Source: Ostreococcus lucimarinus
Taxonomy: Eukaryota
DNA: 64,000 nt
NCBI GenBank assembly: GCA_000092065.1
Contig: CP000582.1
Strand: one strand, 5' to 3'
Part shown: positions 4,966 through 54,116 of the stretch, in pieces
Numbering within the stretch: position 1 is the first letter of the stretch
How the letters are laid out: each line of letters starts with the position of its first letter
Notes under the pieces: model-generated
The model's database searches: none
What the model was told of the DNA's origin: nothing
What the model saw: the letters and a program-made list of their open reading frames with translations, nothing else
Program-made: the position numbers and the translations under genes

Positions 4966-6849
4966 CTACACAGTCGTCGCTCCCTCGTTGGTGACGACCT
5001 CTTTTTCTACAAACTCAAGGATATCGTTCGACGTGATGTTGTCCTGAATTGATTTCCACGTCTTTTCGTAAGTGGTGATGAAATTCGGCGTATCTTTATC
5101 CGACCTCGTACGCAAGAAAACCCACGTTTTTTCATTCATATCCCACGTGCACTCGACGATTTTACCATCCAAGCTTTCGAGTGGATCCGTGCGTGTGACA
5201 AAATCGTCCTCGAGGCGGGCGAGCGCGCCGCCTTTTTGACCCACAAAGAGCAAACCTTTATCTCGCGATACGCGCAAGAGAAAGTCGACCGAGTTCAACC
5301 CTGGAAACTTCCACTTGAGCAGTGCTTCGTACGTTTGCGGGACGTACGGCACATTTGAGGGTTGGAAAATCAATCCATCGCTTTCGTGCGACAGGGCGGG
5401 AATGAACTTTTCGATGAATGAGCGCGCAAAATTCAGCGGGAAAAATTCCTTTGTGCGAACAGAAAACGGTTCTTTATGCGCGGCGTAAGCTCCACTCGGA
5501 CCCGCCTGCGCGAGAAACGCCTTTCTCGGTTCGACGACGAACTCACGCACAATGTTCAATCGCTCCAAGAACGGACGTTGCGTCACGCGTTCGCCGTTGA
5601 TGGCCATCAAATCGTACGCTAGATACCGGCGCGTCTGCTTCTTCGTCTGAGGATCGGTGTCGACGACCATCTCGCCATCCATCAACGTACAGTGGTGTAC
5701 GTTGGTTCCAAACTTTTTGTGCGGTAAAGGAAATCGCATTTGCACGCGGCGAATAGCGAATTTTCTATCGATCAAGTACGTGCCATCGCGCATAAGCATT
5801 AATAAATAACGCGTCCCGTCCGCCTTCCACGTCACGCTGTATGGTTCACGTTTCAAGAGCTCCATGTTGTTGCGACTCAGACTCACCGGCTGTGATCCAG
5901 GAAAGTTATCAACGCGTCCTGAGGCCCCATCGTCTGACATGACCGCCCACACGCAAAGCTTTCGAATCTCGTGCGCCATTTCCTCGTACACCTCCTCGCC
6001 GACGACGTCTTCGTGATGCATCGATCCCGCATCACTCTCGACCTCCGCAATCTCCATCGCGCGCTGCAACGCTCTGCGCGTCCCCGGTATCGGTGCTCGA
6101 CTGTGCGCTAACGTCTTCTTATACGTCAAATTCACCCTCGGATCGAACAGATCTCCCGCCGGTATCTTGTCGTCCGTCAACGGCGGCGCGTCGCTCAAAT
6201 CGTCGCTCTTCCACGCCGGCACTTTCGGATCCTTCGTCGTGCTAAACCTCCGTTCGAGATAATAATCAAACAAGCTCTCCAAGTACTCGCTCTTGTATAT
6301 CCCCGGCGGTCGCACTTTCGCGAACTCCGTCACCCACTTATTCAACTCGGGCCAGCCTCGCGCGCGCTGACAATAATGCGTCAACATCGCGCCCGTTCGA
6401 TTAAACCCGTGCGTACAGTGCACCAATATCGTCGGCGCATACCCTTGTCTCGCCTTTTCCTGCCATCCCGGATCGCTCGCCATCTCCGCCGCGCATCTTT
6501 GCACCGCGTACACGAATTCGCTCACCTCCCGCGGCGCCGGCGCGCCGTCCCGTCCCGCGCACCGAATCTTATACACCCTCACCCCGTACTTTTCGAAGTC
6601 GCTCGCGTCGTAATACCTCGACGTGTTCGTGAGATCGATCACCATCGCCACCGCGCGTCCTTTGCTCTGCGCCAGCGCCAGCGCGTCGTCGGGCGTGTAC
6701 CAATCCTCTCTCGGGACGTCGGCGTAGAATTGCTCCCTCAGCGGCGCCTTGGACGCGAGAAACATCCCCGCGAACGGTTCGGACATGCGCGGGCACGCCG
6801 TCCATCCCTCGGGCGTCGCCCACGCGCCGCGCGGGCCGTCGTCGGGCAT
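4966..6849 (-). CDS. bifunctional mRNA capping enzyme (Cys-phosphatase-type RNA 5'-triphosphatase + mRNA guanylyltransferase)
   Basis: True ATG at 6849 on minus strand. N-terminal dual-specificity phosphatase P-loop VHCTHGFNRTG (HCxxGxxR[ST]). C-terminal guanylyltransferase with KxDG nucleotidyl-transferase motif (WKADGTRYLLM) and downstream RFPLPHKKFG / DGLIFQP blocks. Domain order TPase-GTase as in metazoan/plant capping enzymes. Confidence 0.8.
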   Translation of the reverse strand: MPDDGPRGAWATPEGWTACPRMSEPFAGMFLASKAPLREQFYADVPREDWYTPDDALALAQSKGRAVAMVIDLTNTSRYYDASDFEKYGVRVYKIRCAGRDGAPAPREVSEFVYAVQRCAAEMASDPGWQEKARQGYAPTILVHCTHGFNRTGAMLTHYCQRARGWPELNKWVTEFAKVRPPGIYKSEYLESLFDYYLERRFSTTKDPKVPAWKSDDLSDAPPLTDDKIPAGDLFDPRVNLTYKKTLAHSRAPIPGTRRALQRAMEIAEVESDAGSMHHEDVVGEEVYEEMAHEIRKLCVWAVMSDDGASGRVDNFPGSQPVSLSRNNMELLKREPYSVTWKADGTRYLLMLMRDGTYLIDRKFAIRRVQMRFPLPHKKFGTNVHHCTLMDGEMVVDTDPQTKKQTRRYLAYDLMAINGERVTQRPFLERLNIVREFVVEPRKAFLAQAGPSGAYAAHKEPFSVRTKEFFPLNFARSFIEKFIPALSHESDGLIFQPSNVPYVPQTYEALLKWKFPGLNSVDFLLRVSRDKGLLFVGQKGGALARLEDDFVTRTDPLESLDGKIVECTWDMNEKTWVFLRTRSDKDTPNFITTYEKTWKSIQDNITSNDILEFVEKEVVTNEGATTV

Positions 6850-6905
6850 TCGTGAGGCGCGAAGTGACGCGCGGACCGTCGCCGCGCCAGTCCGCGACGC
6901 TCGCG

Positions 6906-8210
6906 ATGACGTTCGCGTTCGCGCCGAGCGCCGCGAACGCCTCGCGCGCGCGCGCGCGGTGCGGGACGATCGCGCACGGCGACGGCGCGCGCACGCCGAC
7001 GCCGACGGCGCTCGCGCCGACGTCCAAGGGCGAACACGCGACGCTCACGAAGGATGTTTTGGACGACGTCGAGACGCGACTGCGCGCCGCGCTGCGCGCG
7101 CGGCGACGCGCGAACGACGACGGGACGAGCGATGAGGGGTGTTTATTCGGATGCGCGCTCGTCGGCGCGCACTTCGCGAGGAAGACGAAGCGCGGGACGA
7201 AGCGGAAGCGCGACGGCGACGAAGCCGAAGGCGAAGAAGCCGAGGGCGACGAGGCGGCGTGTCCGCCGCCGCGGCGATTAACGCTCGGACACTACAGGGA
7301 TTCGATGTACTTTGGTATGAATGCGCAGAATCGCTCGGGTGCGGACGCGTTGGCGTGCGAGACGCCGTATGGGCAGAGGAGTTTGGACGCGCGCGAGTAC
7401 GCGAGGATTTGGCGGTCGGGCGCGGCGCACGCGGCGGTTTCGTTGGCGGATGAACACGGAGGGTGGGAGAGCGCGAAGAAGAGTAAGACAGCGGCGATAC
7501 GTACGTGTGCATGGCTGGATGCGTGCGCGAAAGAGGCGAAAACATTGAGGTTGCCGTTGTTTGGGGCGTTGACGGGGGGCGAACACGCAGAGGTGCGCGA
7601 AGAGTGTTCGCGTCGAGTGGCGGAACGGGATGATGACGTCGTGGGGTACGCGCTGAGCGGGTTCTTCGCCGGTGAAGACGTCAGTACGCGAGGAGCGTGC
7701 GTAGAGGCGTCGTTGAAGCACATCCCGAGCGAGAAACCGCGCTATTTGTCGGGGACGACGACGGTGGAAGACATCGTGGACAACATCGACAGAGGCGTCG
7801 ACGTGTTCGACGCGAGTTGGGCGAGCGAAACTGCGCAACGCGGGCGCGCGTTTTGTTTCCCAGTCGATGAAGAAGATGATGAGATGGAAGCAGAAGACGC
7901 CGAATCGCGCGCGACGTCGGGGAGCGACGCGTATTCCATCAACATTTGGTCGACGTCGTACAAGACGGATTTCACCCCGTTCATTCGCGGAGACCGCTGT
8001 CGCTGCCCCGCGTGCGCCGAGCACACTCGGGCCTACGTGCATCACTTATTACAAGCGCACGAGATGACCGCGGACGTCTTGCTCGAGGCGCATAACCTAT
8101 ATCACATCGCCGCGTTCTTTGCCGCGGCGAGACGCGCGATTCGGTGCGGTCGGTGGCAAGAATTTGCCGCCTTCCACCGCGCGTACGCCCAGCGCGCGCG
8201 CGAAACGTAG
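6906..8210 (+). CDS. queuine tRNA-ribosyltransferase family protein (probably QTRT2-like accessory subunit)
   Basis: Track ORF starts at GTG 6852; first ATG at 6906. C-terminal TGT-family zinc motif CRCPACAEHTRAYVHHLL followed by LLEAHNLYHIAAFF (TGT C-terminal helix). N-terminal catalytic DSGGFQ-type motif not seen, hence accessory-subunit guess. Confidence 0.55.
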   Translation: MTFAFAPSAANASRARARCGTIAHGDGARTPTPTALAPTSKGEHATLTKDVLDDVETRLRAALRARRRANDDGTSDEGCLFGCALVGAHFARKTKRGTKRKRDGDEAEGEEAEGDEAACPPPRRLTLGHYRDSMYFGMNAQNRSGADALACETPYGQRSLDAREYARIWRSGAAHAAVSLADEHGGWESAKKSKTAAIRTCAWLDACAKEAKTLRLPLFGALTGGEHAEVREECSRRVAERDDDVVGYALSGFFAGEDVSTRGACVEASLKHIPSEKPRYLSGTTTVEDIVDNIDRGVDVFDASWASETAQRGRAFCFPVDEEDDEMEAEDAESRATSGSDAYSINIWSTSYKTDFTPFIRGDRCRCPACAEHTRAYVHHLLQAHEMTADVLLEAHNLYHIAAFFAAARRAIRCGRWQEFAAFHRAYAQRARET

Positions 8211-11773: not shown

Positions 11774-14521
11774 CTAACTCGGCGTCGATCGAAGCGTCGA
11801 GGTGACGGCGACGATCAAACGTTCGAGGGAATCCACGGTTTGATCGCTCGCGGCGTCGTCGCCGCTCTTCATCGCGGCGCACGCGTCCGTCATCGTCGTG
11901 GTGTGTCGTCGCGCGATGTCGAGAACTGGGGATTTCAATTCGACCTCGGCGTCGCCGGCGAAGAGCGTTCTGACGGCGTCGGCGGTGCGAAGCATGAATT
12001 CGGCGGCGACGTCCACGTCGACTTCTTCGGGAGATTGTCGAAGAGGCATGTCGTTCCAATCTTCGATCAACGTTCGAAACGACTTACTCATCAATTCGAA
12101 CGCTTCTGCGGCGAATTTACGAGCATCATCGATAGAATCTCTTCGGCGCTCGATTTCGGCTTCGACGATTTCGTGCGCGAGTACCCATCCTGTGAGTGTC
12201 GTCTTCCCGCGCTGCGCGAGCGTTCTCGTCGGCGAAGACGCGCTTCTGTCAAAGAGTCCGCCAAACGTTAACGCGATATAGACTCCGCTCCTCGTAAGGT
12301 CTGCCGCACACAAAGTTTCCGCGACGGCGCGTACGAGAGCGTCGGCGGCGGCGCCGTCGGCGAAACGTCCCAAATGCGCGCTCGGCGACTCGATCGTCGT
12401 TAACGCGCGTTTCGCCAAAGCCACGCGCGTCGCTCCAGGTGTTACTGCGCACGTTGCGTCTATGAACGCAACAGCACATTGGGGTGCGATGCGATATAGC
12501 AAGTGCGTGGTGGCTTCAAACGGGGCGAACGCGACGGTCGCCGGCGCCGGCGTCTCTGACGCGTCGACTCGCGACGCCATGGCGGTGACGAGCTCTTCAA
12601 TCGCGACCTTTGCATCCGATTCATCTTCTTGCGGAAACAATAATGGTTTATCGCCCCACACCGCATCTATCAAGGTTGCGAGCGCGGCGCCGTCGCGAAA
12701 CGCCAGCAACGCGCGCGCGCCGACCCAAGCGTACGCGGGTAAATTCTCTCCGCGCGAAGATTCGAGCTCGCGCACGAGCCCTGAGAGATGAACGTCGTCG
12801 CTGATGACACCGTCCCTTTGAGACGCGCCGCCCGTTGCGCGCAATGCGTCCCAGTCCGTGAGAAGAATATCCCGCGCTTCGTGGACGCTCGCGCTAGCTT
12901 GACGCGAGAACGCTTCGCAATCCGCCGACGCTCGCTCGAGCGTCTCTAAAGCTTCGCGCACGGCAAAGTTCCATCTCGCCGCGGCGACTTCATCAAATCG
13001 ACCGTCGAGCCTCGCCTTGAGAAGGAGCGCCGGCGCGATCGCACACGATGCTCTGACGTCTCTGGAACGCGTCGCCAATCGCGCGTCTCTCTTTGTCCTA
13101 AACGCCTCCGTCGCCGTCTCCACCTCGCGTCGCGCGGTGATTAAAGCGCGAGCGAGAGCCTCCTTCGACGCGCCGTACATCTCTACGTCGGCTAGAACCT
13201 TGTCGATATGCTCCAGGTCGTACAGAGTCGTCGACATCAGTATGGGTTCCACCACTTTCGACAACGCGCTCGGGACGTGCAGCGAACACCGGAACACGGG
13301 CGCGAGCGCGCCCGGCGAGTACGCTCGCGCATACATACCGGCGACGCCTCCGTTGACGAGTTCAAACGCGTGCTCTTGCGAAGAAATCGTCGCGTGCGAT
13401 TCGCTCGCGGCGCGCGGCAATTCAGGCAGCGTCGCGGAATCGACCAACGCGCCCGTGCTCGCGTGAAACACGCGAATCAACCGTCGCTCCGACGCGGCGT
13501 CGAACGAGGCGACCCACAAAAACGCACCGTGTCGCGCGATGCTCATCGCGCGCTCACCCGCGCGCATCTCTTGACCGTCTTCATCCTCCTTCGTCGCCGA
13601 AACGCGCCCGAACGCGCACACCTCCTCCACCGCGTGCGCGACGTCGTCGTCGTCGCGTCGCTCGCCCGGCGCGCCGAGCGCCGGCAGCACCACGAACGCC
13701 CTTTCCGCGTCGACGTCCGCGCACACGAGCGCGCGATCCGGAAACGACACGCTCGTCAACAGCGCCCTCGACGGTCCACTCCCACCATCCATCCCGCCGT
13801 CGCGCGTCGCCCCTCGCGCGTCGACGCGCGCCGTCGCTCGCCGCAATCGACAATTCCACCTATAAAGCACCCCACTTCGCGTCGTCACCCAAAAATCCTC
13901 CCCTCCCGCGCTCACCACCCCCACCAACCCCTCATACGTCGCGCTCGCCACCGTTTCTCCCGCGTTCGCGCTCGCCGCCCCCCCCACCACTCGCACCGCC
14001 ACCCGTCCCGCGTCGCCGTCGCCCGCCGCGCTCGCCGTCGCCGCGTACGTCGTCCCATCGCTCCCCTCGCACGCGCACATCCCGAAGCAGTCCCCGACCC
14101 GCGCGCCGCTTCCCCCCGTCCCATCTCGCGCCGATTTCGTCCCCTCCGCGACGATCGGCGGCGCGCCCGCGTACGGCGGCGTCGTCGTCCCGCGCAGCGC
14201 GCCGCCGCCGTCGCGTCGCCACGCCGCGATCGCGCCGTCCCGCCTCGCCGCGATCGCGCCGTCGCGCGTGCTCGCCAAGCGCGCGCACGGCGACGCACCG
14301 AAAAGCGCGACGTGTCGCGTCGTCCACCCGTCGTCGTCGTCGTCGTCGTCGTCGAGCGTCGCGCGTCGCGTCGATTCGACGCGCCTTTCGAGCGTCGCGA
14401 CGACGCGTCCGCCGTCGCCGGCGCAGACGAGCGCGCGGGCGTCGGCGAGCGCGACGAGGGCGTCGCCGCAGTCCGGCGGCGGGCGACGGCGCGACGCGAC
14501 GGCGTCGACGACGAGCGGCAT
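11774..14521 (-). CDS. large hypothetical protein (915 aa), poly-Asp tract near N-terminus, alpha-helical C-terminal half
   Basis: ATG at 14521 (minus). Normal composition over 2.7 kb, unlike the Arg-rich antisense frame 13208..15472. (GAC)n tract encodes DDDDDDDD. No family recognised; N-terminal part could be beta-propeller-like. Confidence 0.5.
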   Translation of the reverse strand: MPLVVDAVASRRRPPPDCGDALVALADARALVCAGDGGRVVATLERRVESTRRATLDDDDDDDDGWTTRHVALFGASPCARLASTRDGAIAARRDGAIAAWRRDGGGALRGTTTPPYAGAPPIVAEGTKSARDGTGGSGARVGDCFGMCACEGSDGTTYAATASAAGDGDAGRVAVRVVGGAASANAGETVASATYEGLVGVVSAGGEDFWVTTRSGVLYRWNCRLRRATARVDARGATRDGGMDGGSGPSRALLTSVSFPDRALVCADVDAERAFVVLPALGAPGERRDDDDVAHAVEEVCAFGRVSATKEDEDGQEMRAGERAMSIARHGAFLWVASFDAASERRLIRVFHASTGALVDSATLPELPRAASESHATISSQEHAFELVNGGVAGMYARAYSPGALAPVFRCSLHVPSALSKVVEPILMSTTLYDLEHIDKVLADVEMYGASKEALARALITARREVETATEAFRTKRDARLATRSRDVRASCAIAPALLLKARLDGRFDEVAAARWNFAVREALETLERASADCEAFSRQASASVHEARDILLTDWDALRATGGASQRDGVISDDVHLSGLVRELESSRGENLPAYAWVGARALLAFRDGAALATLIDAVWGDKPLLFPQEDESDAKVAIEELVTAMASRVDASETPAPATVAFAPFEATTHLLYRIAPQCAVAFIDATCAVTPGATRVALAKRALTTIESPSAHLGRFADGAAADALVRAVAETLCAADLTRSGVYIALTFGGLFDRSASSPTRTLAQRGKTTLTGWVLAHEIVEAEIERRRDSIDDARKFAAEAFELMSKSFRTLIEDWNDMPLRQSPEEVDVDVAAEFMLRTADAVRTLFAGDAEVELKSPVLDIARRHTTTMTDACAAMKSGDDAASDQTVDSLERLIVAVTSTLRSTPS

Positions 14522-14550: not shown

Positions 14551-15029
14551 TATCTTTCGTCAGACTGTTTGCGCATACGAGGTGGTTTGGTACGTGTCGT
14601 CACACTGTTTGCGCATACGAGGTGGTTTGGTACGTGTCGTCACACTGTTTGCGCATACGAGGTGGTTTGGTACGTGTCGTCACACTGTTTGCGCATACGA
14701 GGTGGTTTGGTACGTGTCGTCACACTGTTTGCGCATACGAGGTGGTTTGGTACGTGTCGTCATACTGTTTGCGCATACGAGGTGGTTTGGTACATGTCGT
14801 CACACTGTTTGCGCATACGAGGTGGTTTGGTACGTGTCGTCACACTGTTTGCGCATACGAGGTGGTTTGGTACGTGTCGTCACACTGTTTGCGCATACGA
14901 GGTGGTTTGGTACGTGTCGTCATACTGTTTGCGCATACGAGGTGGTTTGGTACATGTCGTCACACTGTTTGCGCATACGAGGTGGTTTGGTACATGTCAT
15001 CACACTGTTTGCGCATACGAGGTGGTTTG
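14551..15029. repeat. 40-bp minisatellite, about 12 near-identical tandem copies (unit TCACACTGTTTGCGCATACGAGGTGGTTTGGTACGTGTCG)
   Basis: Read directly: exact 40-nt periodicity from about 14551 to 15029. Only two variable positions (CACACTG/CATACTG and TACGTGT/TACATGT); first and last copies degenerate. Unit is AT-richer than surrounding DNA. Lies between divergent ATGs at 14521 (minus) and 15306 (plus). Confidence 0.9.
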
Positions 15030-31468: not shown

Positions 31469-33217
31469 CTACCAGCGACCGAGCGCCATGCCCATGACGC
31501 CGACGAGACCTGCGGCGTAGGATGCGACGGCGGCGGTCTTTTGTTGGCGATCGTAAAAGTTCGCCCCGCGCTTACTCACGGCGACGACGAGTTCTCTCGT
31601 CGTGTTGTTCGGCTCGATGCCGCGCTGCAAGAGTTCGTCGTACACCTCCACCGCCTTGTCGTAATTACCGGCGATGTCCGCGGCTTGGATGAGCGTGTTG
31701 TACGTGTGCACGGTGTGCTCGACGTCGTACAACTCCTTCATCTCGGTCGCGATTTTTGAGCACTCTCGAAAGTTGCCCTCGCTCGCGGGACCGAGCATCA
31801 AGCCGACAAAGGTGTAGTCGTCTGGCGGAATACGCCGCGCGAGCATTTGCTCGAACACCTTGCGCGCTAGATCAGTTTTCCCACTTCGTCCGTACGCCGA
31901 AATCAGCGTGCTATACGTCACGCGAGAGGGCTGAATGTTGTACAACTCTCGCATGTCTCTAAATAAAACCTCCGCGCGCTGCCACTGCGTGCACTTGCCC
32001 AAAACGCTGAGGACAATGTTGTGATGTATCTCCTTAGCCTTTCCTTCGCTCGTGAGCTGATTGAGCAAGCGCACCGCGCGCTCCCACTGCAAACTCTTTT
32101 CGTACGCGTGCAACATGGCGCTATACGTGTGGTCGTTCGGCGCCGGTCCGTCGCGACGCATGTCCTCGAACAAAGCCTCGGCGAGCTTCCAATCCATCGC
32201 CTCAGCGTACGCCTTCATGACCGCCGTGCACGTGAAAGTCGTGCGAGGCACGCGCGTGAAGGTTTCTATCGCCTCTTCGTAGTTCCCACATCGACACATC
32301 GCCGTCATGTAATCCACGTACAGCTTGCTATCCGTCGCCCGCCCGCTCGACTCGATGGCTCGCAACATCGCCCTCGCGTTGTCTTCGCTCCCCAAAACCC
32401 CGAAAGCGCTGATGAGCGCCGACGCGATCGCCAAGTCCGGTTCCACGCCATCGCGTTTCATCTCTGGAATCAACTTCACCACCGCGCGCGCCCCCGCGCG
32501 CCCGCCGTTCGCCCCGGCTCTGACCAACGCGCTGTACGTGTGCGCGTTTCTCGCCGTCCCCGCGCGCTTCATCTCCCCCAGCATCCCCAGCGCCTCCTCC
32601 CACCGTCCAGCGCCGTCCAGCGCTTGCACGCACGTCGTATACGTGTGCGTCGTCGGCGCCACCTCTCGCGCGTCCGCGCTCCGTCTTTTCATCCACTCCA
32701 GCGTCGCCAACGCCTTATCCGCGTCTCGCGCGCGCGTCGCCAACGACATCATCGTCGTGCACACGTGCGCGTTCGGCCACACCTCAGAGTCATCCGCCGT
32801 CATCGCGTCGAATATTCCGCTCGCCACGTCTCGCGCGCCTTTCGCGCCTCGCTCGCGTCCGACGCGCTTCAGCTCTTGTATCAACCACGTCGCCGCGCCG
32901 CGCTCGAGCGCCGTCGACGCGCCTCGCGCCCCCTCCTCCTCGCGCGCGCGCCTCGCCGCGCGATCGCGCGTCCGCGCGCCGTCGACGAGTCGCTCGACCT
33001 CGTCGTCGACGTCTCGCGCGCCGTCGCGCGCGTCGCGCGCGTCGCGCGCGTCCGCGACCGCGCGCGTTCGCGACGACGTCACGCGACGGCGGCGCGTCGC
33101 GCGCGCGCCGCCGCGCGCGTCGCGCGCGCGCGCGGGCGACGACGACGCGCGCGACGTCCGCGCGGACGTCGACGCGCGCGCCGACGCGCGCGGCGCGGAC
33201 GCGACGCGCGCCGACAT
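31469..33217 (-). CDS. pentatricopeptide-repeat (PPR) protein, organelle RNA-binding
   Basis: ATG at 33217 (minus). Ser/Arg/Ala-rich presequence, then more than 10 degenerate 35-aa helical repeats of PPR type (...HTYTTCVQALDGAGRWEEALGMLGEMKRAG, NAHTYSALVRAGANGG, DHTYSAMLHAYEKSLQWERAVRLLNQL, TYSTLISAYGRSGKTDLARKVFEQM, HTYNTLIQAADIAGNYDKAVEVYDEL). Confidence 0.7.
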   Translation of the reverse strand: MSARVASAPRASARASTSARTSRASSSPARARDARGGARATRRRRVTSSRTRAVADARDARDARDGARDVDDEVERLVDGARTRDRAARRAREEEGARGASTALERGAATWLIQELKRVGRERGAKGARDVASGIFDAMTADDSEVWPNAHVCTTMMSLATRARDADKALATLEWMKRRSADAREVAPTTHTYTTCVQALDGAGRWEEALGMLGEMKRAGTARNAHTYSALVRAGANGGRAGARAVVKLIPEMKRDGVEPDLAIASALISAFGVLGSEDNARAMLRAIESSGRATDSKLYVDYMTAMCRCGNYEEAIETFTRVPRTTFTCTAVMKAYAEAMDWKLAEALFEDMRRDGPAPNDHTYSAMLHAYEKSLQWERAVRLLNQLTSEGKAKEIHHNIVLSVLGKCTQWQRAEVLFRDMRELYNIQPSRVTYSTLISAYGRSGKTDLARKVFEQMLARRIPPDDYTFVGLMLGPASEGNFRECSKIATEMKELYDVEHTVHTYNTLIQAADIAGNYDKAVEVYDELLQRGIEPNNTTRELVVAVSKRGANFYDRQQKTAAVASYAAGLVGVMGMALGRW

Positions 33218-33277
33218 CCGCGCGACGGTTCGCGGCGAAGTGACGATTTCGACGCGTCGAGGTCGCCGCAGAGCGCG

Positions 33278-34684
33278 ATGCGGCCGACGCCGCCGCGCGC
33301 GCGCGCGCGCGCGCGCAAAGCCACGCGCTCGCGCGCGCTCGCGACGCGCGCGATCGCGACGATCGCGGCGACGATCGGCGCGCGCGCGGTCGATGTCGAT
33401 TCATATTTTTCGCGAAGCGAATCTTCCGCGTTCGTGCGCGCGACGTCGAACGGCACGTTCGCGGTCGGGTGCGAATCCCGAAACGTCGCCGGGATGAATT
33501 TTTACCCGCTCGTCGAGTTCGCGGGGGAATTCGCGCGCGCGAGCTTCGGGTTCGACCACGGAGACGGACGCGGACGCGCCGCGGCGAGGGACGTTTTCAA
33601 GCTCGCGCGCGAGAGCGGGATGACGACGATTCGCGCGTGGGCGTTTTCGGTGAACCCCGCGGTGCCGACGTGGGTGCGCGTGGGTGAGAGGCATCGCGAG
33701 GACGTGCTTCGAGGATTGGATTGGGCGCTCGCGGAGGCGGCGAAGCACGGATTGGATTTGCTCTTGGCGTTCGGCGACTACTGGCACACGACGGCGGAAA
33801 TCGTGCGAGAGTGCGCGCCGGAGGACGCGGAGACTGAGGACGCCGATCGCGCATTTTTCTCGCGTGAAAGCTGTAGGGAATTGTTTAAATGGCACGTGCG
33901 CACGATTTTGACGCGGAACAACACGTTCACGGGCGTGACGTATTCGACGACGCCGAACGTCTTCGGGTGGAATTTGATGAACGAGCCGCGGTGTCGAGGA
34001 TGCGACGACGCGCTTCAGGACTGGATCGACGACATGGCTGCGTACGTCAAGGCGTTCGATTCCAATCACATGCTGACCGTGGGTGAGGAAGGATTCTACG
34101 CGCACGACTCGAGTTCAGAGGGAGGCGCCGCCGCCAATCCCGCGGCGTGGGCCGCGACGACTGGGCAAGATTTCATTCGCAACCACGCGTCGAAGCACAT
34201 CGACTTCGCGACGATTCACGTGTGGCGAGACAATTGGGCGGTGTATTCGCCGAACGTGCGATTCAACGCGCAGAGATTCACTCGAAATTGGATCGCAACG
34301 CACGAGCGCGATTGTCGCACGAAGCTCCGGAAGCCGCTCTTAATCGAGGAATTCGGCGCGGCGCCCGGCGGGGTTCGCGCGCTGTCTCGCGTCAGCCGCG
34401 GCGTGAGCCGAAGGGCGTCGTTTCTAGAGGAGCGCGACGTCGAAGATTACTACCGCGCACTTCTATCACAGGTGTACCGAAGCATCGCGAGCGACGACGG
34501 GAAATTCGTTCGCGGCGCGTTATTTTGGGGGATGTTCCCGGAGGACCACCGCGGGGTAGTGGACGCGTACGATCCCTACGCCGTGTACCCGAGCGATGGC
34601 GCGTTCGCGCAGGCGACTCGTTTTGCGAAGAGCGTGCGCCGAGTCGTGCGTTCGATGTCGTGCGAGGAAGACGGGCGCGATTAA
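33278..34684 (+). CDS. glycoside hydrolase family 5 protein (endo-beta-1,4-mannanase-like)
   Basis: Track ORF 32021..34684 is antisense-of-PPR junk upstream; first plausible ATG 33278. GH5 catalytic acid motif WNLMNEPRC (NEP) and nucleophile motif LLIEEFG; mannanase-like blocks TIRAWAF, HMLTVGEEGFY, HVWRDNW. Confidence 0.7.
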   Translation: MRPTPPRARARARKATRSRALATRAIATIAATIGARAVDVDSYFSRSESSAFVRATSNGTFAVGCESRNVAGMNFYPLVEFAGEFARASFGFDHGDGRGRAAARDVFKLARESGMTTIRAWAFSVNPAVPTWVRVGERHREDVLRGLDWALAEAAKHGLDLLLAFGDYWHTTAEIVRECAPEDAETEDADRAFFSRESCRELFKWHVRTILTRNNTFTGVTYSTTPNVFGWNLMNEPRCRGCDDALQDWIDDMAAYVKAFDSNHMLTVGEEGFYAHDSSSEGGAAANPAAWAATTGQDFIRNHASKHIDFATIHVWRDNWAVYSPNVRFNAQRFTRNWIATHERDCRTKLRKPLLIEEFGAAPGGVRALSRVSRGVSRRASFLEERDVEDYYRALLSQVYRSIASDDGKFVRGALFWGMFPEDHRGVVDAYDPYAVYPSDGAFAQATRFAKSVRRVVRSMSCEEDGRD

Positions 34685-36332: not shown

Positions 36333-37466
36333 ATGCGCGCGTCCGCGCGTCCGCGCGCGATCGTCGCGCGCGCGTCCAGCGCGTCGTTCGAGGATAAGTT
36401 GGCGCGCGCGCGCGGGCTGTTCGGCGTGGACTCCATCGACGCGCACGCGTCGCCGAAATCCGCGGGGTTTCGCGAGCGCGCGAGTCACGGCGTCGAGAAG
36501 ACGCGCGACGGCGCGCTGCGGCTGGTGAGCGTGCGCGCCGCGACGGGTGCGCTGGTGACGTCGGACGCGACGTCGCGCGACGACGCGGCGGGCGTCGAGC
36601 GGGCGAGGGAAATCTTCCTGAGGGTCGCGAACGACGACGCGTGGACGACGACGCGAGCGCGCGTGACGGCGGCGAATTTTTTAACGAATCGAACGTCGGA
36701 TGAGATCGTGATCGCGTGCACGCTGTCGGCGGAGAGCGGCGATGGCGACGACGCGACGTGGATGGAGTTCGCGGAGGCGATGCGAGCGCTCGACGACGCC
36801 GTCGTCGGGTGCGTTCGAAAGCGTAAGAAGACGCCGAAGCTCGTCGTCGGGCGCGATTACGTGACGGAGACCACGCGCTTGGTCGACGGTCGTTCGGTGG
36901 TTTTTAAACACGTCGAGGGGAGCTTTTCAAATCCGAACGGTGGCGTCGCCGAACTCACGGCGAATCATCTCGTTCGGATTTGCGCGGATATCGCCGGCCC
37001 GAAGACGAAATTCATCGAGCTGTACGCCGGTTGCGGAAATCACACGTGTTGCATGGCGCCGCAGTTTCCCGGCGGCGCGTTCGCGGTGGAGATTGATCCG
37101 GTTTTGGTGGAAGCGGCGCGAGAAAACTTTGCGCGCAACGGCGTTCGAGCGGAAATCGTGTGCGAACGCGCCGAGGATTGGATCGCGTCTCGCGAAAGTC
37201 CCACGAACGACCGCGACGTCGTCCTGCTCGTCGATCCACCGCGCGGTGGGTTGGACGCGCGCACGCTCGACGTCGTCACGCGCGAATTCGACGACGTCAT
37301 TTACGTCGCGTGTGACTGCGAATCACTCAAGCGAGACATCGACGACGAGCGCGTGGGATTCGCGGCGAGAGGGTTCGAACTGACATCGCTCGCGTGTTTC
37401 GACCACGCGCCGACGTCGCCGCGATGGATCGAAACCGTGGGGGTTTTTAAGAGGCGAGAGGCGTAG
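36333..37466 (+). CDS. TrmA/TRM2-family tRNA (uracil-5)-methyltransferase
   Basis: Track ORF 35160..37466 starts at GTG with about 390 junk codons; ATG at 36333 gives MRASARPRAIVARASS... (alternative 36279). SAM-MTase motifs FIELYAGCGNHT, VEIDPVLVEAARENFARNG, LLVDPPRGGLD, VIYVACDCESL; C-terminal nucleophile region FELTSLACFDHAPTSPRWIETVGVF (bacterial DMFPHTAHVESV equivalent). Last 18 codons and stop lie in copy 1 of the 160-bp tandem repeat. Confidence 0.75.
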   Translation: MRASARPRAIVARASSASFEDKLARARGLFGVDSIDAHASPKSAGFRERASHGVEKTRDGALRLVSVRAATGALVTSDATSRDDAAGVERAREIFLRVANDDAWTTTRARVTAANFLTNRTSDEIVIACTLSAESGDGDDATWMEFAEAMRALDDAVVGCVRKRKKTPKLVVGRDYVTETTRLVDGRSVVFKHVEGSFSNPNGGVAELTANHLVRICADIAGPKTKFIELYAGCGNHTCCMAPQFPGGAFAVEIDPVLVEAARENFARNGVRAEIVCERAEDWIASRESPTNDRDVVLLVDPPRGGLDARTLDVVTREFDDVIYVACDCESLKRDIDDERVGFAARGFELTSLACFDHAPTSPRWIETVGVFKRREA

Positions 37467-37891
37467 GAATAGACCGAGTAGCCGTAGCGAAAGACTTAAT
37501 AGCTATACACAATGCACAAATCACGTGATGACGTCGTCGTCGCGACTCGTGTCGGCGGCGTTTCGATTAAAGACGTCGCCGCGATGGATCGAAACCGTGG
37601 GGGTTTTTAAGAGGCGAGAGGCGTAGGAGTAGACCGAGTAGCCGTAGCGAAAGACTTAATAGCTATACACAATGCACAAATCACGTGATGACGTCGTCGT
37701 CGCGACTCGTGTCGGCGGCGTTTCGATTAAAGACGTCGCCGCGATGGATCGAAACCGTGGGGGTTTTTAAGAGGCGAGAGGCGTAGGAGTAGACCGAGTA
37801 GCCGTAGCGAAAGACTTAATAGCTATACACAATGCACAAATCACGTGATGACGTCGTCGTCGCGACTCGTGTCGGCGGCGTTTCGATTAAA
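37411..37891. repeat. 160-bp tandem repeat, about 3 copies, spanning the convergent 3' ends of two genes
   Basis: Read directly: unit GCGATGGATCGAAACCGTGGGGGTTTTTAAGAGGCGAGAGGCGTAGGA[A/G]TAGACCGAGTAGCCGTAGCGAAAGACTTAATAGCTATACACAATGCACAAATCACGTGATGACGTCGTCGTCGCGACTCGTGTCGGCGGCGTTTCGATTAAAGACGTCGCC repeats with period 160 at about 37421, 37581 and 37741; copies differ by 1 nt. Confidence 0.85.
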
Positions 37892-38746
37892 TCCCACCGC
37901 ATCCATCACCCCCGCGTGCGCGTTCAACGCCTCGGCCATCTCGCGATTGCTCGGTTCGTCGACCCACTCTTTCACGACCTCGGATCCGTCGTCGTTCCAC
38001 AAATACCATCTCCCCGGCCACCTTCGCACGAGCGTTCCCTCCGCGCCGGCCGCGGATCTCGTTCGACGACACGCGTACACCTTCTCCCACGCGTCCGTCG
38101 TCAAACACGCTCTCGCCGCCTTCTTCAACCCAAACTCCCACGGCTGTCCCACCTCCTCGCCTCGCCCCGTCCAAAACGCGTTCACCGCGACGACGATTTT
38201 CGACTCCACCTCGCCGTGCTCTCCCGCCAACAGTTTCAAAAAGTACCCGAACGTCACGTCGCTCACGTGCGTCACCACCACCGCGAACGCTTCGTCGCTC
38301 GCGTCGTTCGCGCGCAGGCTCCACAGTCCCACGCCCTCGGCGTCGCGGTCGAGCCGCCCGTGATACTCGCTCGCGTACCCGTCGAACGCGTCCCGCTCGA
38401 GCAGCGCCCGCGTCGCGCGAAACCGCTGCGCCATCCCGCCCGACCAATCCGCGGCTTGTCCGTGCAGGCCGAGGTAGACGACGTCGTCCGTCCCGACGTC
38501 GATCGACGGCAGCGGGAGCTCGACGCGCGCGCGTCGAGGCGCGGCGTCGGCGTCGCGGAGCGCGCGAAACGTCGCGCGCGCGTCCCGCGCGGCGTCCGCG
38601 CACGTCCGAGGCGGTGGCGCGCGGGACGACGCGACGATCGCGCGACGCGCGGGCGCGCGGGCGTGCGCGACGATCGCGCGACGCGCGGGCGCGCGCGCGA
38701 CGCCGCGCGGGACGCGCGCGCGCGGCGACGACGCGCGGCGCGCCAT
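37841..38746 (-). CDS. hypothetical protein (301 aa) with Arg/Ala-rich presequence
   Basis: ATG at 38746 (minus). N-terminus contains a direct duplication RAPARRAIVA x2 from a 34-bp DNA repeat. Globular-looking C-terminal region (FAVVVTHVSDVTFGYFLKLLAGEHG..., WEFGLKKAARACLTTDAW) with no recognised family. Last 16 codons and stop are encoded inside copy 3 of the 160-bp repeat. Confidence 0.45.
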   Translation of the reverse strand: MARRASSPRARVPRGVARAPARRAIVAHARAPARRAIVASSRAPPPRTCADAARDARATFRALRDADAAPRRARVELPLPSIDVGTDDVVYLGLHGQAADWSGGMAQRFRATRALLERDAFDGYASEYHGRLDRDAEGVGLWSLRANDASDEAFAVVVTHVSDVTFGYFLKLLAGEHGEVESKIVVAVNAFWTGRGEEVGQPWEFGLKKAARACLTTDAWEKVYACRRTRSAAGAEGTLVRRWPGRWYLWNDDGSEVVKEWVDEPSNREMAEALNAHAGVMDAVGFNRNAADTSRDDDVIT

Positions 38747-38889
38747 GACGCGCGGCGAACGCGACGCGCGCGACGACGCGCGCGCGCATCAACCCGTAAC
38801 ACGAACGCGGTGGAGGTCGCGGGTGTCGTCGGGCGATTTATTCGTGTTGTGTCGTAGTGTAGACGATTTCGTCCTATCATCAATCACAA

Positions 38890-39033
38890 GGGGCATTGGT
38901 CTAGTGGTATGATACTCTCTTAGGGTGCGCGCGACGACGCGTCACACTCGAGACTCGAGCTCGGCTCGCGCCGAGCGCTCGATCGGCTTCACTGACGTGG
39001 GAGTGGTCCGCGGTTCGATTCCGCGATGCCCCC
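38890..39033 (+). tRNA. tRNA-Pro: tRNA-Pro (anticodon AGG) with 72-nt intron at canonical 37/38 position
   Basis: Read directly: 5' half GGGGCATTGGTCTAGTGGTATGATACTCTCTTAGGG (near-identical to human tRNA-Pro D-arm and anticodon loop CTTAGGGT). 3' half TGGGAGTGGTCCGCGGTTCGATTCCGCGATGCCCCC with T-arm CGCGG/TTCGATT/CCGCG and acceptor GGGGCAT:ATGCCCC, discriminator C, no encoded CCA. Intervening 72 nt (about 38926..38997) between anticodon-loop position 37 and 38. Mature length 72 nt. Confidence 0.85.
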
Positions 39034-39051
39034 TCTTTCTCTTTTTTTTAT
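39034..39051 (+). terminator. RNA polymerase III terminator (T-run) after tRNA-Pro
   Basis: TCTTTCTCTTTTTTTTAT immediately 3' of the discriminator base; oligo-T runs terminate Pol III. Confidence 0.55.
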
Positions 39052-39098
39052 ATTAATGGTGTGATGCTACTGATGAACCCGCGTGAATGTCGCGGCGT

Positions 39099-40331
39099 TC
39101 ACATCGGAACGTAATGCGTGTCCTCCCTGTGCGCGCCGTTTTCGTAGTACTTCGTGTACCAGCGCACAAAGTTTTGCAAGCCCTCGTCCAGGCCGACGGT
39201 GGGATTGTATCCCAAGTCTCGCTTGGCCGCCGAAATGTCGGCGTGCGTGAACGGGACGTCGCCGGTTTTCGGCATCGGGACGTAGTTTCGCTTGGCGGTC
39301 TTACCGAGCGCCTTTTCGAGCGACGACACGAAGTCGCTCACCGTCACCGGTTTGGTGTTTCCTAGGTTGTATACCCGGAACGGCGGCTTGGAACCGTCGG
39401 AGTTTTTCCCGCTCTTCTCGCTCGTGTCACACGCCGCGATCGTCCCTCGAACGACGTCGTCGATGTAGGTGAAATCGCGAGCGAGCTCGCCCCCATCCGG
39501 GCCTTTGAAAATTTTGATCGGCTTGTCTTGCATGATGTTGTTCGCGAAGGAGAAGTACGCCATGTCCGGGCGCCCGTACGGCCCGTAAACCGTGAAAAAT
39601 CTCAACGCCGTCAACGCCACGCCGTGAATGTGGTTGTACGTGTGCGCGAGCAGTTCGTCCGCTTTCTTCGTCGCCGCGTACAAGGACGCCGGGGAATCCG
39701 TGACGTCGGTTTCGCTAAACGGCACCTTGGTATTCAACCCGTACACGCTCGACGACGAGGCGAAGATGACTTTTGGCATGCGTTTCATGTGAACGATCTC
39801 TTCCATCAGCGTCACGAACCCGGCGACGTTGGAGTGCACGTACGCCCCCGGATTTTTCACCGCGTATCTCACCCCCGCCTGCGCCGCCAGGTGCACCACC
39901 GTCGTCACCTCGCACGTCTCCAAAATCTTCCGCACCGTCACCGCATCGTTCAGATCCGCCTCCACCACGTGCACACCGATCTCGCTCAACTTCCCCATTC
40001 GACTCCGCTTCAATCCGCGCGGGTAATAATCGTTCACGTTATCCAGTCCCACGACGCCCGCGCCTCGTCGCTTCAGCGCCGTCGCCACGTTCGATCCCAC
40101 GAACCCCGCCGCGCCCGTCACCAGATACACCTCTCCCGACGCGCTCGCGCACGATTTCACGAGCGCTCGCGTCGTCATCTTCCTCGCCGTGATGCTGAAC
40201 GCGCTCAGCGGTCCCGCCTTGAGCACCTCCTCGCCGTACGACGTCCCGCGCGCGCTCGACCTCGCCCACAGCGACGCGCAGATCACGAATCCGATCAGCA
40301 CGCTGCACGAGTGTCGCCCCAGCCTGCGCAT
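39099..40331 (-). CDS. GAE: UDP-glucuronate 4-epimerase (GAE family, type-II membrane NAD-dependent epimerase)
   Basis: Track ORF 39099..41333 starts Arg/Pro-rich; ATG at codon 335 (40331) gives N-terminal signal anchor MRRLGRHSCSVLIGFVICASLWA (alternative Met at 40421). Near-colinear match to plant GAE1: VLVTGAAGFVGSNVATALKRRGAGVVGLDNVNDYY, HLAAQAGVRYA, ASSSSVYGLN, ASLYAATKKADE, RFFTVYGPYGRPDMAYFSF, DFTYIDDVV, NLGNTKPVTV, GDVPFTHA. Confidence 0.85.
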   Translation of the reverse strand: MRRLGRHSCSVLIGFVICASLWARSSARGTSYGEEVLKAGPLSAFSITARKMTTRALVKSCASASGEVYLVTGAAGFVGSNVATALKRRGAGVVGLDNVNDYYPRGLKRSRMGKLSEIGVHVVEADLNDAVTVRKILETCEVTTVVHLAAQAGVRYAVKNPGAYVHSNVAGFVTLMEEIVHMKRMPKVIFASSSSVYGLNTKVPFSETDVTDSPASLYAATKKADELLAHTYNHIHGVALTALRFFTVYGPYGRPDMAYFSFANNIMQDKPIKIFKGPDGGELARDFTYIDDVVRGTIAACDTSEKSGKNSDGSKPPFRVYNLGNTKPVTVSDFVSSLEKALGKTAKRNYVPMPKTGDVPFTHADISAAKRDLGYNPTVGLDEGLQNFVRWYTKYYENGAHREDTHYVPM

Positions 40332-48309: not shown

Positions 48310-49132
48310 GGCGACGCGCGTTCGCGCCGCGCCGACGCCGCGCGCGGCGCCGCCGCGACGCCGCGTCGCGCGACGCGCGTACGGGACGTCGACGCGCGAC
48401 GGGACCTTCGTCGAGGGGCCCGGAAACGCGTTCGGGCGATTGATCGACGCCGCGCGAGGCGCGCGCGACGTCGTCCAGGCGGGCGCGCCGGCGCTGCGAG
48501 ACGTCGCGCGCGCGGTCGACGTCGACGAGATCGACTCGACGGAGATCCAGGAGTTGATCGCGGAGATGCTGCGCGTGTGCAGAGCGCGCGGGGTGGGGCT
48601 GGCGGCGCCGCAGCTGGGGGCGCGGCGACGCGTCGTGGTGCTGGAGGACACGACGGAGGGCATGTCGGACGAGACGAGCGAGGCGCTGGCGATGAAGCGA
48701 CGCGAGGCGTTCAGAGCGAAGGTGATCGTGAATCCGACGCTGACGCCGATCGGGGACGCGAGCGCGGCGTTCTTCGAGGGATGCCTGTCGGTGGCGGGAT
48801 ATCGCGCGGTGGTGCGGCGACACCTCAGGGTGCGGTGTCGAGGGTACGGCGGCGACGGGAAGCCGGTGGATTTCGAAGCCGTGGGGTGGGAGGCGAGGAT
48901 TTTGCAGCACGAGGTCGATCACCTGGACGGGGTGCTGTACACGGATCGCATGGAATCGCGAACGCTGCGAAGGGTGGATTTGCTCGACGAGCCGCTGCCG
49001 GGGGATCACCCAGAGTTCGGCGAGGCGGTGGTGCTCGGGGAATCGACCGCGCCCGTGCGGCGGGGCCCGGGCGCGAGCGCCGCGGAGGACGTCGAGGCGC
49101 GCGTCAAGGCTCGGAAAAATCGTAAAAAGTAG
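48260..49132 (+). CDS. PDF: peptide deformylase (PDF1A-type, organellar)
   Basis: ATG at 48260 (alternative Mets at 48284 and 48308). Transit-like N-terminus. PDF motifs GVGLAAPQLG (motif 1), EGCLSVAG (motif 2), QHEVDHLDG (motif 3 with metal-binding HExxH). Confidence 0.85.
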   Translation: MSRARRDLMSIATPRRMATRVRAAPTPRAAPPRRRVARRAYGTSTRDGTFVEGPGNAFGRLIDAARGARDVVQAGAPALRDVARAVDVDEIDSTEIQELIAEMLRVCRARGVGLAAPQLGARRRVVVLEDTTEGMSDETSEALAMKRREAFRAKVIVNPTLTPIGDASAAFFEGCLSVAGYRAVVRRHLRVRCRGYGGDGKPVDFEAVGWEARILQHEVDHLDGVLYTDRMESRTLRRVDLLDEPLPGDHPEFGEAVVLGESTAPVRRGPGASAAEDVEARVKARKNRKK

Positions 49133-49836
49133 AGTCGGCGGCGAGAAATCGAAAAGGAGCGCCGTCGGCGAGAAATCGTACAAAGGAGAGCCGCGAGTGT
49201 CGGCGTAGAATCTTAGCGACTCTTTAGCGCATCATTTTTAACGCATCGAACATTCGCGCGACCGCTCGCGTCTCGAGCTCGCGGAGCGTCGTCTTCGTCG
49301 GGTTTTCGCGCCGTTCGCCGCGCGACGCGAGGGCGAGGGTTCGCGCGCGCGCGCGAACCGCACTTCTCGGCGCGCGTCGCACGTCGAGGTCGTCGCCGAC
49401 GTCCCGTTCGCCCCAAAGGTGACAGACGACGGCTTGCGCGACTGTTAAGCCCCACGCGCGCGCGTGGTGACGCGATCGACGCGAGATTCAACGCGAATTC
49501 GCGTGAATTTCAAGAAAGCGAGATCGCGACACAAACGGCTCGCGCGCGCGTTCAAAGCGAACTCGCGAGCGAGACGCGCGCGCAAAGCGTGAAAAGGTTT
49601 GTGTTCTTTCGTTTGAATCGGTAGCGCCGCCGAGTGGCATAGCACGTGCTCGAGCATATCGGTGAATACACATACAGCAGTTGTCGTAGCAGACGCGCGA
49701 GAGATCTCGAGCGCGGTTTTCGTCGATTGACTCGATTCCTCGCTCGCTCGCTCCCGGCGTGCGTGCTGACGTTTGACTTTTGGCTTTTGCGCACGCGTTC
49801 GCGTCGTGTTGTTGTTCAATCGTAGCACTCGCGAAG

Positions 49837-53639: not shown

Positions 53640-53688
53640 GTCGCGCGCGCGCGCCGTCGCGTCGAACTCGCGATACCAACGGTCGCGT

Positions 53689-53722
53689 TTCGAATCGAAT
53701 CGAATCGAATCGAATCGAATCG
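53689..53722. repeat. microsatellite (TCGAA/GAATC)x6 in 5' region of the coiled-coil gene
   Basis: Read directly: tcgaatcgaatcgaatcgaatcgaatcgatcg. Confidence 0.7.
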
Positions 53723-54116
53723 AATCGATCGCGCGTTCGTGTCGATCGCGCCGTCCGCGACGCGTCGCCGAGTGGCGCGACGCCGCGCGCGTCGCGCCGT
53801 CTTTCGCGCGTCGTCTCAACCCTAGGCCAGGGTCGCCGTCGCCGGCGTCGTCGTCGTCGTCCGCGCCCGAGCGCGCAGGCTGGACAAAACGCGCGCGATG
53901 GTTTTTATCTCATGGGTCTACATTTCACTGAATACGTAGAAAACAAAACGACATTCGCATGTGTATTACATACACATTTTGTTGCACGCGCGTGTAATGA
54001 TCACGGGTCACGACTCAAGAGTATACATGTACGTATGGGTAAACAGTGACGATGCGTCGTCCGTCCCGACGGACCGACGCCCCGCACACCGACGCGCGCC
54101 GACGGTCGACCGCGCG

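Follow-up and report, generated by a model that had tools for sequence, protein, structure and literature searches.

Small tandem duplications that need no homology can arise when complementary overhangs are filled in and the ends are sealed by non-homologous end joining (NHEJ), CST–Pol alpha-primase being the activity that fills in 3' overhangs (PMC8355091). The same work mentions in general terms the internal tandem duplications (ITDs) of oncogenes. Templated insertions identical to nearby sequence are a hallmark of end joining by Pol theta (PMC7368036), and the reference list of that article includes work on insertions that arose in rice as natural tandem duplications and on tandem duplications induced in Arabidopsis by paired nicks. 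In this work we analysed 64,000 nucleotides of Ostreococcus lucimarinus (assembly GCA_000092065.1, contig CP000582.1; this whole stretch is called the window below), in which a 160-bp unit, present three times in tandem, carries the 3' ends of two convergent genes, one for a tRNA (uracil-5)-methyltransferase-like protein and one for a DUF1995-domain protein. Our reading, to which we give a probability of about 0.6 as a whole, is that the array is a real derived allele at a locus-specific hotspot of insertions, and that these insertions arise by break repair. This type of mutation is known; its recurrence at one site in a wild picoalga is unusual, and a literature search found no description of such a hotspot at convergent gene ends.

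The 160-bp array and the single-copy allele

Tandem Repeats Finder describes the interval 37412–37891 as 3.0 copies of a period of 160 (99% matches, 0% indels, score 953), which agrees with the definition of a minisatellite as an array in which units of about 10 to a few hundred bp follow one another head to tail, and a separate repeat search placed the copies in register at 100, 99 and 99% identity. Aligned with 20-nt flanks, the copies differ at a single site, unit position 58 (position 1 of the unit being 37412), where copy 1 reads GGAATAG and copies 2 and 3 read GGAGTAG (Table 1); in this alignment the edges of the array are sharp and the flanks have no homology to the unit ends. A 31-nt probe from the unit has exactly three matches in the window, all within the array, where shuffles expect 0.00, and the array is therefore neither a chance occurrence nor a dispersed repeat. 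Its GC content is 0.53, versus 0.61–0.65 around it, in a window of 63% GC with nearly intron-free genes and convergent spacers of 43–98 bp. Proteins encoded nearby belong to 90%-identity clusters that contain the O. lucimarinus CCE9901 proteins XP_001416501.1 and XP_001416258.1, as expected of O. lucimarinus or a very close strain. The original prediction for this DNA had announced three near-identical copies differing by one nucleotide, and a unit made of the 3' coding ends of both genes plus the spacer, the extra copies being pseudo-3'-ends. The copies and their single difference were confirmed by both repeat searches and the alignment, the composition of the unit was borne out, and only the start of the array, placed at 37411, proved to be one base early, the end at 37891 being correct.

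Wild contigs were retrieved from metagenomes by exact-protein look-ups (with the DUF1995 protein, the methyltransferase, a UDP-glucuronate 4-epimerase, an NhaA-type antiporter and three haplotype variants of the DUF1995 protein) and by one DNA scan; they are 99.6–99.97% identical to the window. Alleles were read between identical 25-nt flanks, and the interval was resolved in 28 wild contigs. In 20 of these, among them contigs of 62, 82 and 673 kb, the unit occurs exactly once and position 58 is A in every case; their 160-bp interval is identical to copy 1, which is the basal allele, and the gene tables of single-copy contigs give a gap of 54 bp between the two genes. The scan of JGI metagenomes with the 31-nt probe returned one contig only, also single-copy. 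Because 20 of the 28 contigs carry one unit, the single copy with its 54-bp spacer is both ancestral and most common and the array is a derived state, as a recent duplication, which had been proposed, would have it. Nine of the 29 resolved sequences (window included) are expanded, and these represent seven structural alleles; for the 160-bp unit itself, the copy number is one in the 20 wild contigs, at least two in contig L012 and three in the window.

Contig L012, an independent metagenome scaffold, crosses the junction between two copies, reading ...GTTTCGATTAAA up to position 160 and GACGTCGCCGCG... from position 1 (also given as ...GGCGTTTCGATTAAA followed by GACGTCGCCGCGATGG...). At least one independent data set thus contains the 160-bp duplication, which is not an artefact of the present assembly. 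L012 is the only contig that encodes the exact methyltransferase protein of the window, and a window-specific single-nucleotide polymorphism (SNP) in the flank, at -359, is common to both. L012 ends 55 nt into the second copy, which matches the behaviour expected of a de Bruijn assembler on entering a tandem cycle, and another contig (L007) begins directly behind the A/G site in the last copy, a start that fits an A/G branch in its sample. The possibility of an assembly artefact, raised at the outset, is thus refuted by the L012 junction for the existence of the duplication, the copy number of three lying outside that evidence.

Other insertion alleles and their breakpoints

In seven more of the wild contigs the interval holds insertions of other kinds (Table 1). 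When each allele was decomposed into maximal exact matches to the basal sequence, four sizes of smaller tandem duplication (31, 35, 44 and 82 bp) and two templated insertions were found, the latter copied from sequence 15–170 bp away. In the +12 allele, 3 nt are replaced by a 15–16-nt copy of sequence 17 bp downstream; in the +63 allele, a 12-nt piece from about 170 bp upstream occurs twice, interleaved with local copies. Both open reading frames (ORFs) are intact in every allele. The idea of a polymorphic minisatellite is therefore half right: the locus is polymorphic, but in place of the copy-number ladder of a classical minisatellite it presents at least seven insertion alleles with differing breakpoints. 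Gain or loss of whole units was rejected as the main form of variation, the boundaries being 92–122, 93–127, 104–147 and 41–122, or those of templated insertions.

The insertions of 12–82 bp are shorter than the k of 141 of the MEGAHIT contigs, so their junction k-mers must occur in reads. Since the scaffold pipeline marks its joins with 100 Ns, the N-free sequence that holds the 44-bp and 82-bp duplications is contiguous. The 35-bp duplication was replicated in independent samples from two studies, with the substitution A87T in one contig (L017) and also without it. The 0–2 nt of microhomology at the junctions is too short for spurious graph joins. Two contigs, L028 and L056, were set aside as alleles; they have 100-N gaps here, with overlaps of 33 and 55 bp that are typical k-mer sizes. 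An apparent 102-bp deletion near 38.85 kb in L002 is a 100-N scaffold gap.

Most breakpoints of these alleles fall in a hot zone of about 45 bp in the unit (Table 1), made up of the right half of the spacer together with the DUF1995 stop codon, with left ends at 92, 93 and 104 and right ends at 122 (twice) and 127, while the templated insertions sit at 85/86, 99/100 and 107. Microhomology at the junctions of the five tandem duplications amounts to 0, 1, 1, 1 and 2 nt, and none of the five lengths is a multiple of 3. All five duplications include a 19-bp core, which holds the DUF1995 stop codon and a 10-nt palindrome, ATCACGTGAT (37520–37529). As expected of the fill-in of staggered breaks, they duplicate unique sequence with little microhomology at the junction (0–2 nt), and they are tens to a few hundred bp long (31–160 bp) and span a common region. 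As expected of insertions of the Pol theta type, the inserts are identical to nearby sequence, namely unit 103–118 for +12, and -85..-74 (twice) and 86–107 for +63. Microhomology-mediated duplication, by replication slippage between direct repeats of about 4 nt or more, was rejected, the longest microhomology being 2 nt.

Point changes accompany the expansions. One of the substitutions A58G, A87T and T139G is present in five of the nine expanded sequences and in none of the 20 basal ones (Fisher p = 0.001, on small numbers). A87T, seen only on expanded alleles (L010 and L017) and there on two different duplication backgrounds, extends the 8-nt palindrome ATAGCTAT to a perfect 10-nt palindrome, TATAGCTATA, which is the pattern that correction of a quasi-palindrome by template switching would leave. 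The substitutions on expanded alleles could come from error-prone repair synthesis or from recombination among alleles.

Specificity of the locus

The surroundings of the array are almost invariant. Within 700 bp on either side there are about six genuine SNP sites among 23 sequences; all expanded alleles have a common flank haplotype, and the haplotype comparison is uninformative on independent origins. Over 21 kb the array is the only indel between contig L001 and the window. Between 14 and 64 kb of the window, all other indels of at least 8 bp lie in pre-existing repeats or in one divergent promoter region (Table 1). About ten other convergent spacers (43–237 bp) showed no such event across 9–25 contigs each, and convergent geometry was rejected as a sufficient cause because these spacers are invariant. 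The probability that events would cluster in one spacer among five convergent ones is 0.04 if three clearly independent events are counted and 3e-4 if six are. A 155-bp gain in L040, at the DnaJ/S26e spacer, was discarded since it contains Ns.

A sister lineage (L032–L034) has the same gene order, with flanking genes 91–98% identical. Its spacer is 115 bp long and does not align with the 54-bp spacer (MAFFT), and the last codons of both the methyltransferase and the DUF1995 proteins differ, so that the junction between these genes also turns over between close lineages. A stretch around TAGCTA...TACACAA looks related between the two spacers, by eye only. We found no convincing locally templated pieces in the sister spacer, the matches being CG-rich chance matches and one 9-nt internal repeat. 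The gene calls of L032–L034 are fragmented, which suggests frameshift errors of long-read assembly.

The two genes and neighbouring features

In Pfam, the methyltransferase matches PF05958 (tRNA_U5-meth_tr) over residues 114–361 of 377 (E = 4e-24) and the DUF1995 protein matches PF09353 over residues 46–271 of 301 (E = 1.8e-11); the duplicated coding tails lie at or beyond the edges of these domains. The unit begins at the third base of a Pro codon, followed by the methyltransferase codons and a TAG stop at 37464–37466. The methyltransferase ORF had been said to end in copy 1 with 18 residues; it does end there, with 17 further codons. The minus-strand ORF at 37841..38746 does take its last 16 residues (FNRNAADTSRDDDVIT, then the stop) from copy 3, as had been predicted, and the exact DUF1995 protein is present on 15 metagenome contigs. 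In the array, the native 3' flank is retained over at least 105 nt for each gene, and the two stops are 374 bp apart instead of 54. The consequence of the array is likely to be near neutral; taken alone, the triplication is a young tandem duplication of an ordinary kind, without harm to either gene, and the predicted effect of a minisatellite on 3'-end formation was probably overstated. With a spacer of 54 bp, any larger duplication that spans it includes both gene ends, and both stop codons are found in the unit because only such spanning events leave both ORFs intact.

At its other end the DUF1995 gene contains Arg/Ala-rich coding repeats (38560–38790) with in-frame length polymorphism of 21 bp (L015), 36 bp (L014, L028 and L029) and 156 bp (L018), giving proteins of 294, 289 and 249 amino acids; this N-terminal tract is presumably a transit-peptide-like region. 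An Rfam scan of 36800–39300 at E<=1 gave no match within the repeat, the only match being a weak, chance miRNA-like one at 38767–38835. Between the DUF1995 and epimerase genes lies a tRNA gene on the plus strand (38890–39033) with a 72-nt intron, followed by a T-run at 39035–39050. It was missed by default ARAGORN and by the Rfam E-value scan; with introns allowed, ARAGORN calls it Val-AAC with an intron at position 34, and from its anticodon loop, CTCTC TTAGGGT ... GGGAG, we would read it as Pro-AGG with a canonical intron.

Several other repeats of the window vary among wild contigs. The tandem array at 14557–15029 (40 bp × 11.8, 97% matches), intergenic and upstream of a minus-strand gene starting at 14521, lacks 400 bp in a MEGAHIT k141 contig (L045) and is therefore a true copy-number-polymorphic minisatellite. 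The CG-rich tract at 32940–33430 has shared indels of 9, 60, 75 and 120 bp, and the 27-bp repeat at 49117–49193 has +25/27-bp variants; the variation at these two sites looks like ordinary slippage-type polymorphism. The divergent intergenic region at about 53650–54070 is highly indel-polymorphic around a TCGAA microsatellite, and L038 (about 6180–7900) has some 1.2 kb extra there (+189 and +1046 bp), with an additional ORF of 284 amino acids that has no Pfam match.

Table 1. Features of the locus, insertion alleles and other indel sites, in window coordinates and in positions of the 160-bp unit
Feature	Window position	Strand	Unit position	Description
Methyltransferase-like gene	36333..37466	+		377 amino acids as called on metagenome contigs
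Donor CTCAAGCGAGAC	37326..37337	+	-85..-74	In methyltransferase coding sequence; copied twice into the +63 allele of L016
Unit, methyltransferase end			1-55	Last 17 codons and stop of the methyltransferase
Unit, spacer			56-109	54-bp spacer
Unit, DUF1995 end			110-160	DUF1995 stop and last 16 codons
Copy 1	37412..37571			A at 37469; supplies the real methyltransferase 3' end
Basal stop-to-stop spacer	37467..37520		56-109	54 bp, GC 0.41
Hot zone	37496..37538 (copy-1 coordinates)		85-127	Most breakpoints of wild insertion alleles
8-nt palindrome ATAGCTAT	37499..37506		88-95	
19-bp core CACAAATCACGTGATGACG	37515..37533		104-122	Common to all five tandem duplications
Copy 2	37572..37731			G at 37629; pseudo-3'-ends of both genes
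Copy 3	37732..37891			G at 37789; real DUF1995 3' end (16 codons, stop at 37841-37843)
Junction between 160-bp copies			160/1	TTCGATTAAAGACGTCGCC
DUF1995-domain gene	37841..38746	-		301 amino acids; last 16 codons and stop in copy 3
Allele +12			86-88	L020 (531-kb contig); replaced by a copy of 103-117/118; junction string AAAGACTGCACAAATCACGTGATAGC
Allele +31			92-122	L055 (MEGAHIT k141); tandem duplication; junction 122/92 GTGATGACGCTATACACA
Allele +35			93-127	L017 (MEGAHIT k141) and L060 (different study and assembler); tandem duplication; junction 127/93 GACGTCGTCTATACACAA
Allele +44			104-147	L002; tandem duplication, T139G in first copy; junction 147/104 GTCGGCGGCACAAATCAC
Allele +63 (complex)				L016 (MEGAHIT k141); two copies of CTCAAGCGAGAC interleaved with copies of unit 86-107
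Allele +82			41-122	L010; tandem duplication, A87T in first copy only; junction 122/41 GATGACGAGGCGAGAGG
40-bp minisatellite	14.6 kb			Other indel site
CG-rich tract	33.0-33.4 kb			Other indel site
DUF1995 N-terminal repeat				Other indel site, in-frame
27-bp repeat	49.1 kb			Other indel site
TCGAA microsatellite/promoter region	53.6-54.1 kb			Other indel site

Discussion

We consider it very probable that the triplication is a real, derived and polymorphic allele at a locus-specific hotspot. For the repair mechanism, in which recurrent staggered breaks would lead through fill-in, end joining and Pol-theta-like templated synthesis to the observed alleles, the odds are about even. DNA breaks with staggered ends would recur in the zone from unit position 85 to 147; fill-in of both overhangs followed by end joining would give homology-independent tandem duplications that span the break, Pol-theta-like synthesis would give the +12 and +63 insertions, and low-fidelity repair synthesis is a possible source of the point changes confined to expanded alleles. 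In such a compact genome, selection would keep only events that lie within the spacer or span a stop codon, and the unit would contain both gene ends because only these events survive it. The array itself probably grew stepwise, from a single A unit to A-A, then by the A58G change in copy 2 to A-G, and by unequal exchange or slippage to A-G-G; the presence of the G variant in two copies suggests exchange between units.

Several observations weigh against this reading. The mechanism is deduced from scars, and the copy number of three is that of the present assembly. Each simple duplication is formally an internal deletion of a two-copy 160-bp parent, so there could be fewer than five independent duplication events. 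L012 has G in its copy 1, where the assembler may have picked the better-covered variant. Most expanded alleles are found in one contig each, and the contigs are population consensus sequences of which the longest were preferentially sampled, so that allele counts are not frequencies. Nothing in the sequence explains why this spacer is fragile: its GC content of 0.41 is ordinary and it is not more AT-rich than four invariant convergent spacers (0.38–0.50), and single-stranded DNA folds of the spacer and of the unit, on both strands, are not better than those of shuffles (z of +0.8 to +1.7). A hairpin or cruciform as the cause was rejected, DNA folding lending no support to a stable secondary structure, and a structured RNA in the repeat was rejected on the same z values and on the Rfam scan. 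The motif TCACGTGA, with its CACGTG palindrome (G-box or CDEI-like), occurs in the window only inside the unit, but 1.1 occurrences are expected by chance, and a motif at about chance frequency is no evidence for a binding site.

The formal equivalence between duplication and internal deletion is the basis of an alternative that we find unlikely, in which a single 160-bp duplication created an unstable minisatellite, internal deletions across the junction within a two-copy array gave the 31-, 35-, 44- and 82-bp alleles, and unequal exchange gave the three-copy allele, the locus being an ordinary young minisatellite and not a break hotspot. Any duplication from s to e can be written as the joining of e to s by a deletion within [1-160][1-160], and all four small ones can be derived in this way; arrays of at least two copies are present in at least two independent data sets (window and L012), and all expanded alleles have one common flank haplotype. 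However, a 160-bp array cannot give rise to the templated insertions +12 and +63, the A-A parent that is required was not observed among the contigs, and both copies read A at site 58 in the 82-bp allele while the known arrays carry G. In addition, decay mediated by repeats normally acts through homology and takes out whole units rather than partial segments with 0–2 nt of microhomology, and the single-copy allele is by far the commonest.

It is a little less likely still that the insertions were favoured for their effect, the 54-bp gap forcing transcripts to overlap or collide so that ORF-preserving, gap-lengthening insertions spread with no high local mutation rate. In this model one would understand that the nine non-basal sequences are all gains, with no loss, that an expanded allele is the consensus of contigs of 95–107 kb in two samples, and that the spacer of the sister lineage is longer. 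But losses would destroy gene ends, and a pattern made of gains is expected from purifying selection alone; four other convergent spacers of 43–51 bp, and several longer ones, are unexpanded in the same contigs; and there are many rare alleles, none of them sweeping, with the basal allele still in the majority.

Mis-assembly of the triplication, of the small alleles or of both, by repeat expansion or by unmerged overlapping contig ends, is very improbable. Assemblies do break at this spot, as the gapped contigs L028 and L056 show, and the copy number of the window can be checked only with reads, but the 160/1 junction was recovered in an independent assembly, the small alleles come from three kinds of assembler (MEGAHIT k141 among them), the 35-bp duplication was found in two studies, junction overlaps are 0–2 nt and joins are marked with Ns. 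A mobile origin, in which the unit would be a small transposable element or the insertions excision footprints of a transposon that targets TTAA/TAA at unit 85–88, is scarcely credible in spite of several events that begin at GACT/TAAT (unit 85/86), which contains TTAA: the unit is entirely local, unique sequence without a further occurrence in the window, terminal inverted repeats and target-site duplications are both absent from it, no contig has an element at the site, and duplications of 31–160 bp are untypical footprints. A transposable element or miniature inverted-repeat transposable element (MITE) was likewise rejected for lack of dispersed copies, inverted repeats and target-site duplication, the unit being made of local gene ends.

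We return to the recurrent-break reading to propose, tentatively, that the interval 37496–37538 might be a natural site-specific fragile site, with a recurrent staggered break or a replication-fork barrier at the 3' end of the DUF1995 gene, caused possibly by a factor tightly bound to ATCACGTGAT or by the head-on termination of two transcription units. If this were true, a record of end-joining repair in a marine picoalga could be read from the allele series, which would also provide a hypervariable marker of strains in the midst of a nearly invariant region. No new functional element is revealed by this work. Its interest lies in at least seven insertion alleles within about 45 bp between almost invariant flanks, a natural catalogue, resolved to the sequence, of the scars that break repair leaves (tandem duplications independent of homology, templated insertions and point changes close by) in Ostreococcus, an organism in which repair is little characterised. 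The locus also illustrates how genome compaction filters structural mutations, the survivors carrying a stop codon where only 54 bp separate the two stops, and it could be used to tell strains of O. lucimarinus apart in metagenomes.

The closest known events are the duplications made by CST–Pol alpha-primase and NHEJ (PMC8355091), together with those of rice and Arabidopsis in the reference list of PMC7368036, which the present ones resemble in being head-to-tail copies of unique sequence, tens to low hundreds of bp long, with 0–2 nt of microhomology, in having boundaries at which there was no pre-existing repeat and in overlapping a common break region. The +12 and +63 inserts match nearby flanking sequence, as do those made by Pol theta end joining (PMC7368036). 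In contrast with the cited work on tandem duplications, which concerns induced breaks or events scattered over genomes, many events occur here at one natural site in a wild alga. The locus has in common with minisatellites, or variable number tandem repeats (VNTRs), a tandem 160-bp unit whose copy number varies between individuals (1, at least 2, 3), but the array is very young, there is no ladder and most alleles have other unit boundaries. The ITDs of FLT3 in human leukaemia are in-frame, coding, somatic and positively selected. Like them, the alleles described here are numerous tandem duplications of variable length that have a common core, in a short region with a short palindrome, under selection on the reading frame; unlike them, they never have a length divisible by 3, owe their tolerance to the stop codon that they span, and segregate in natural populations.

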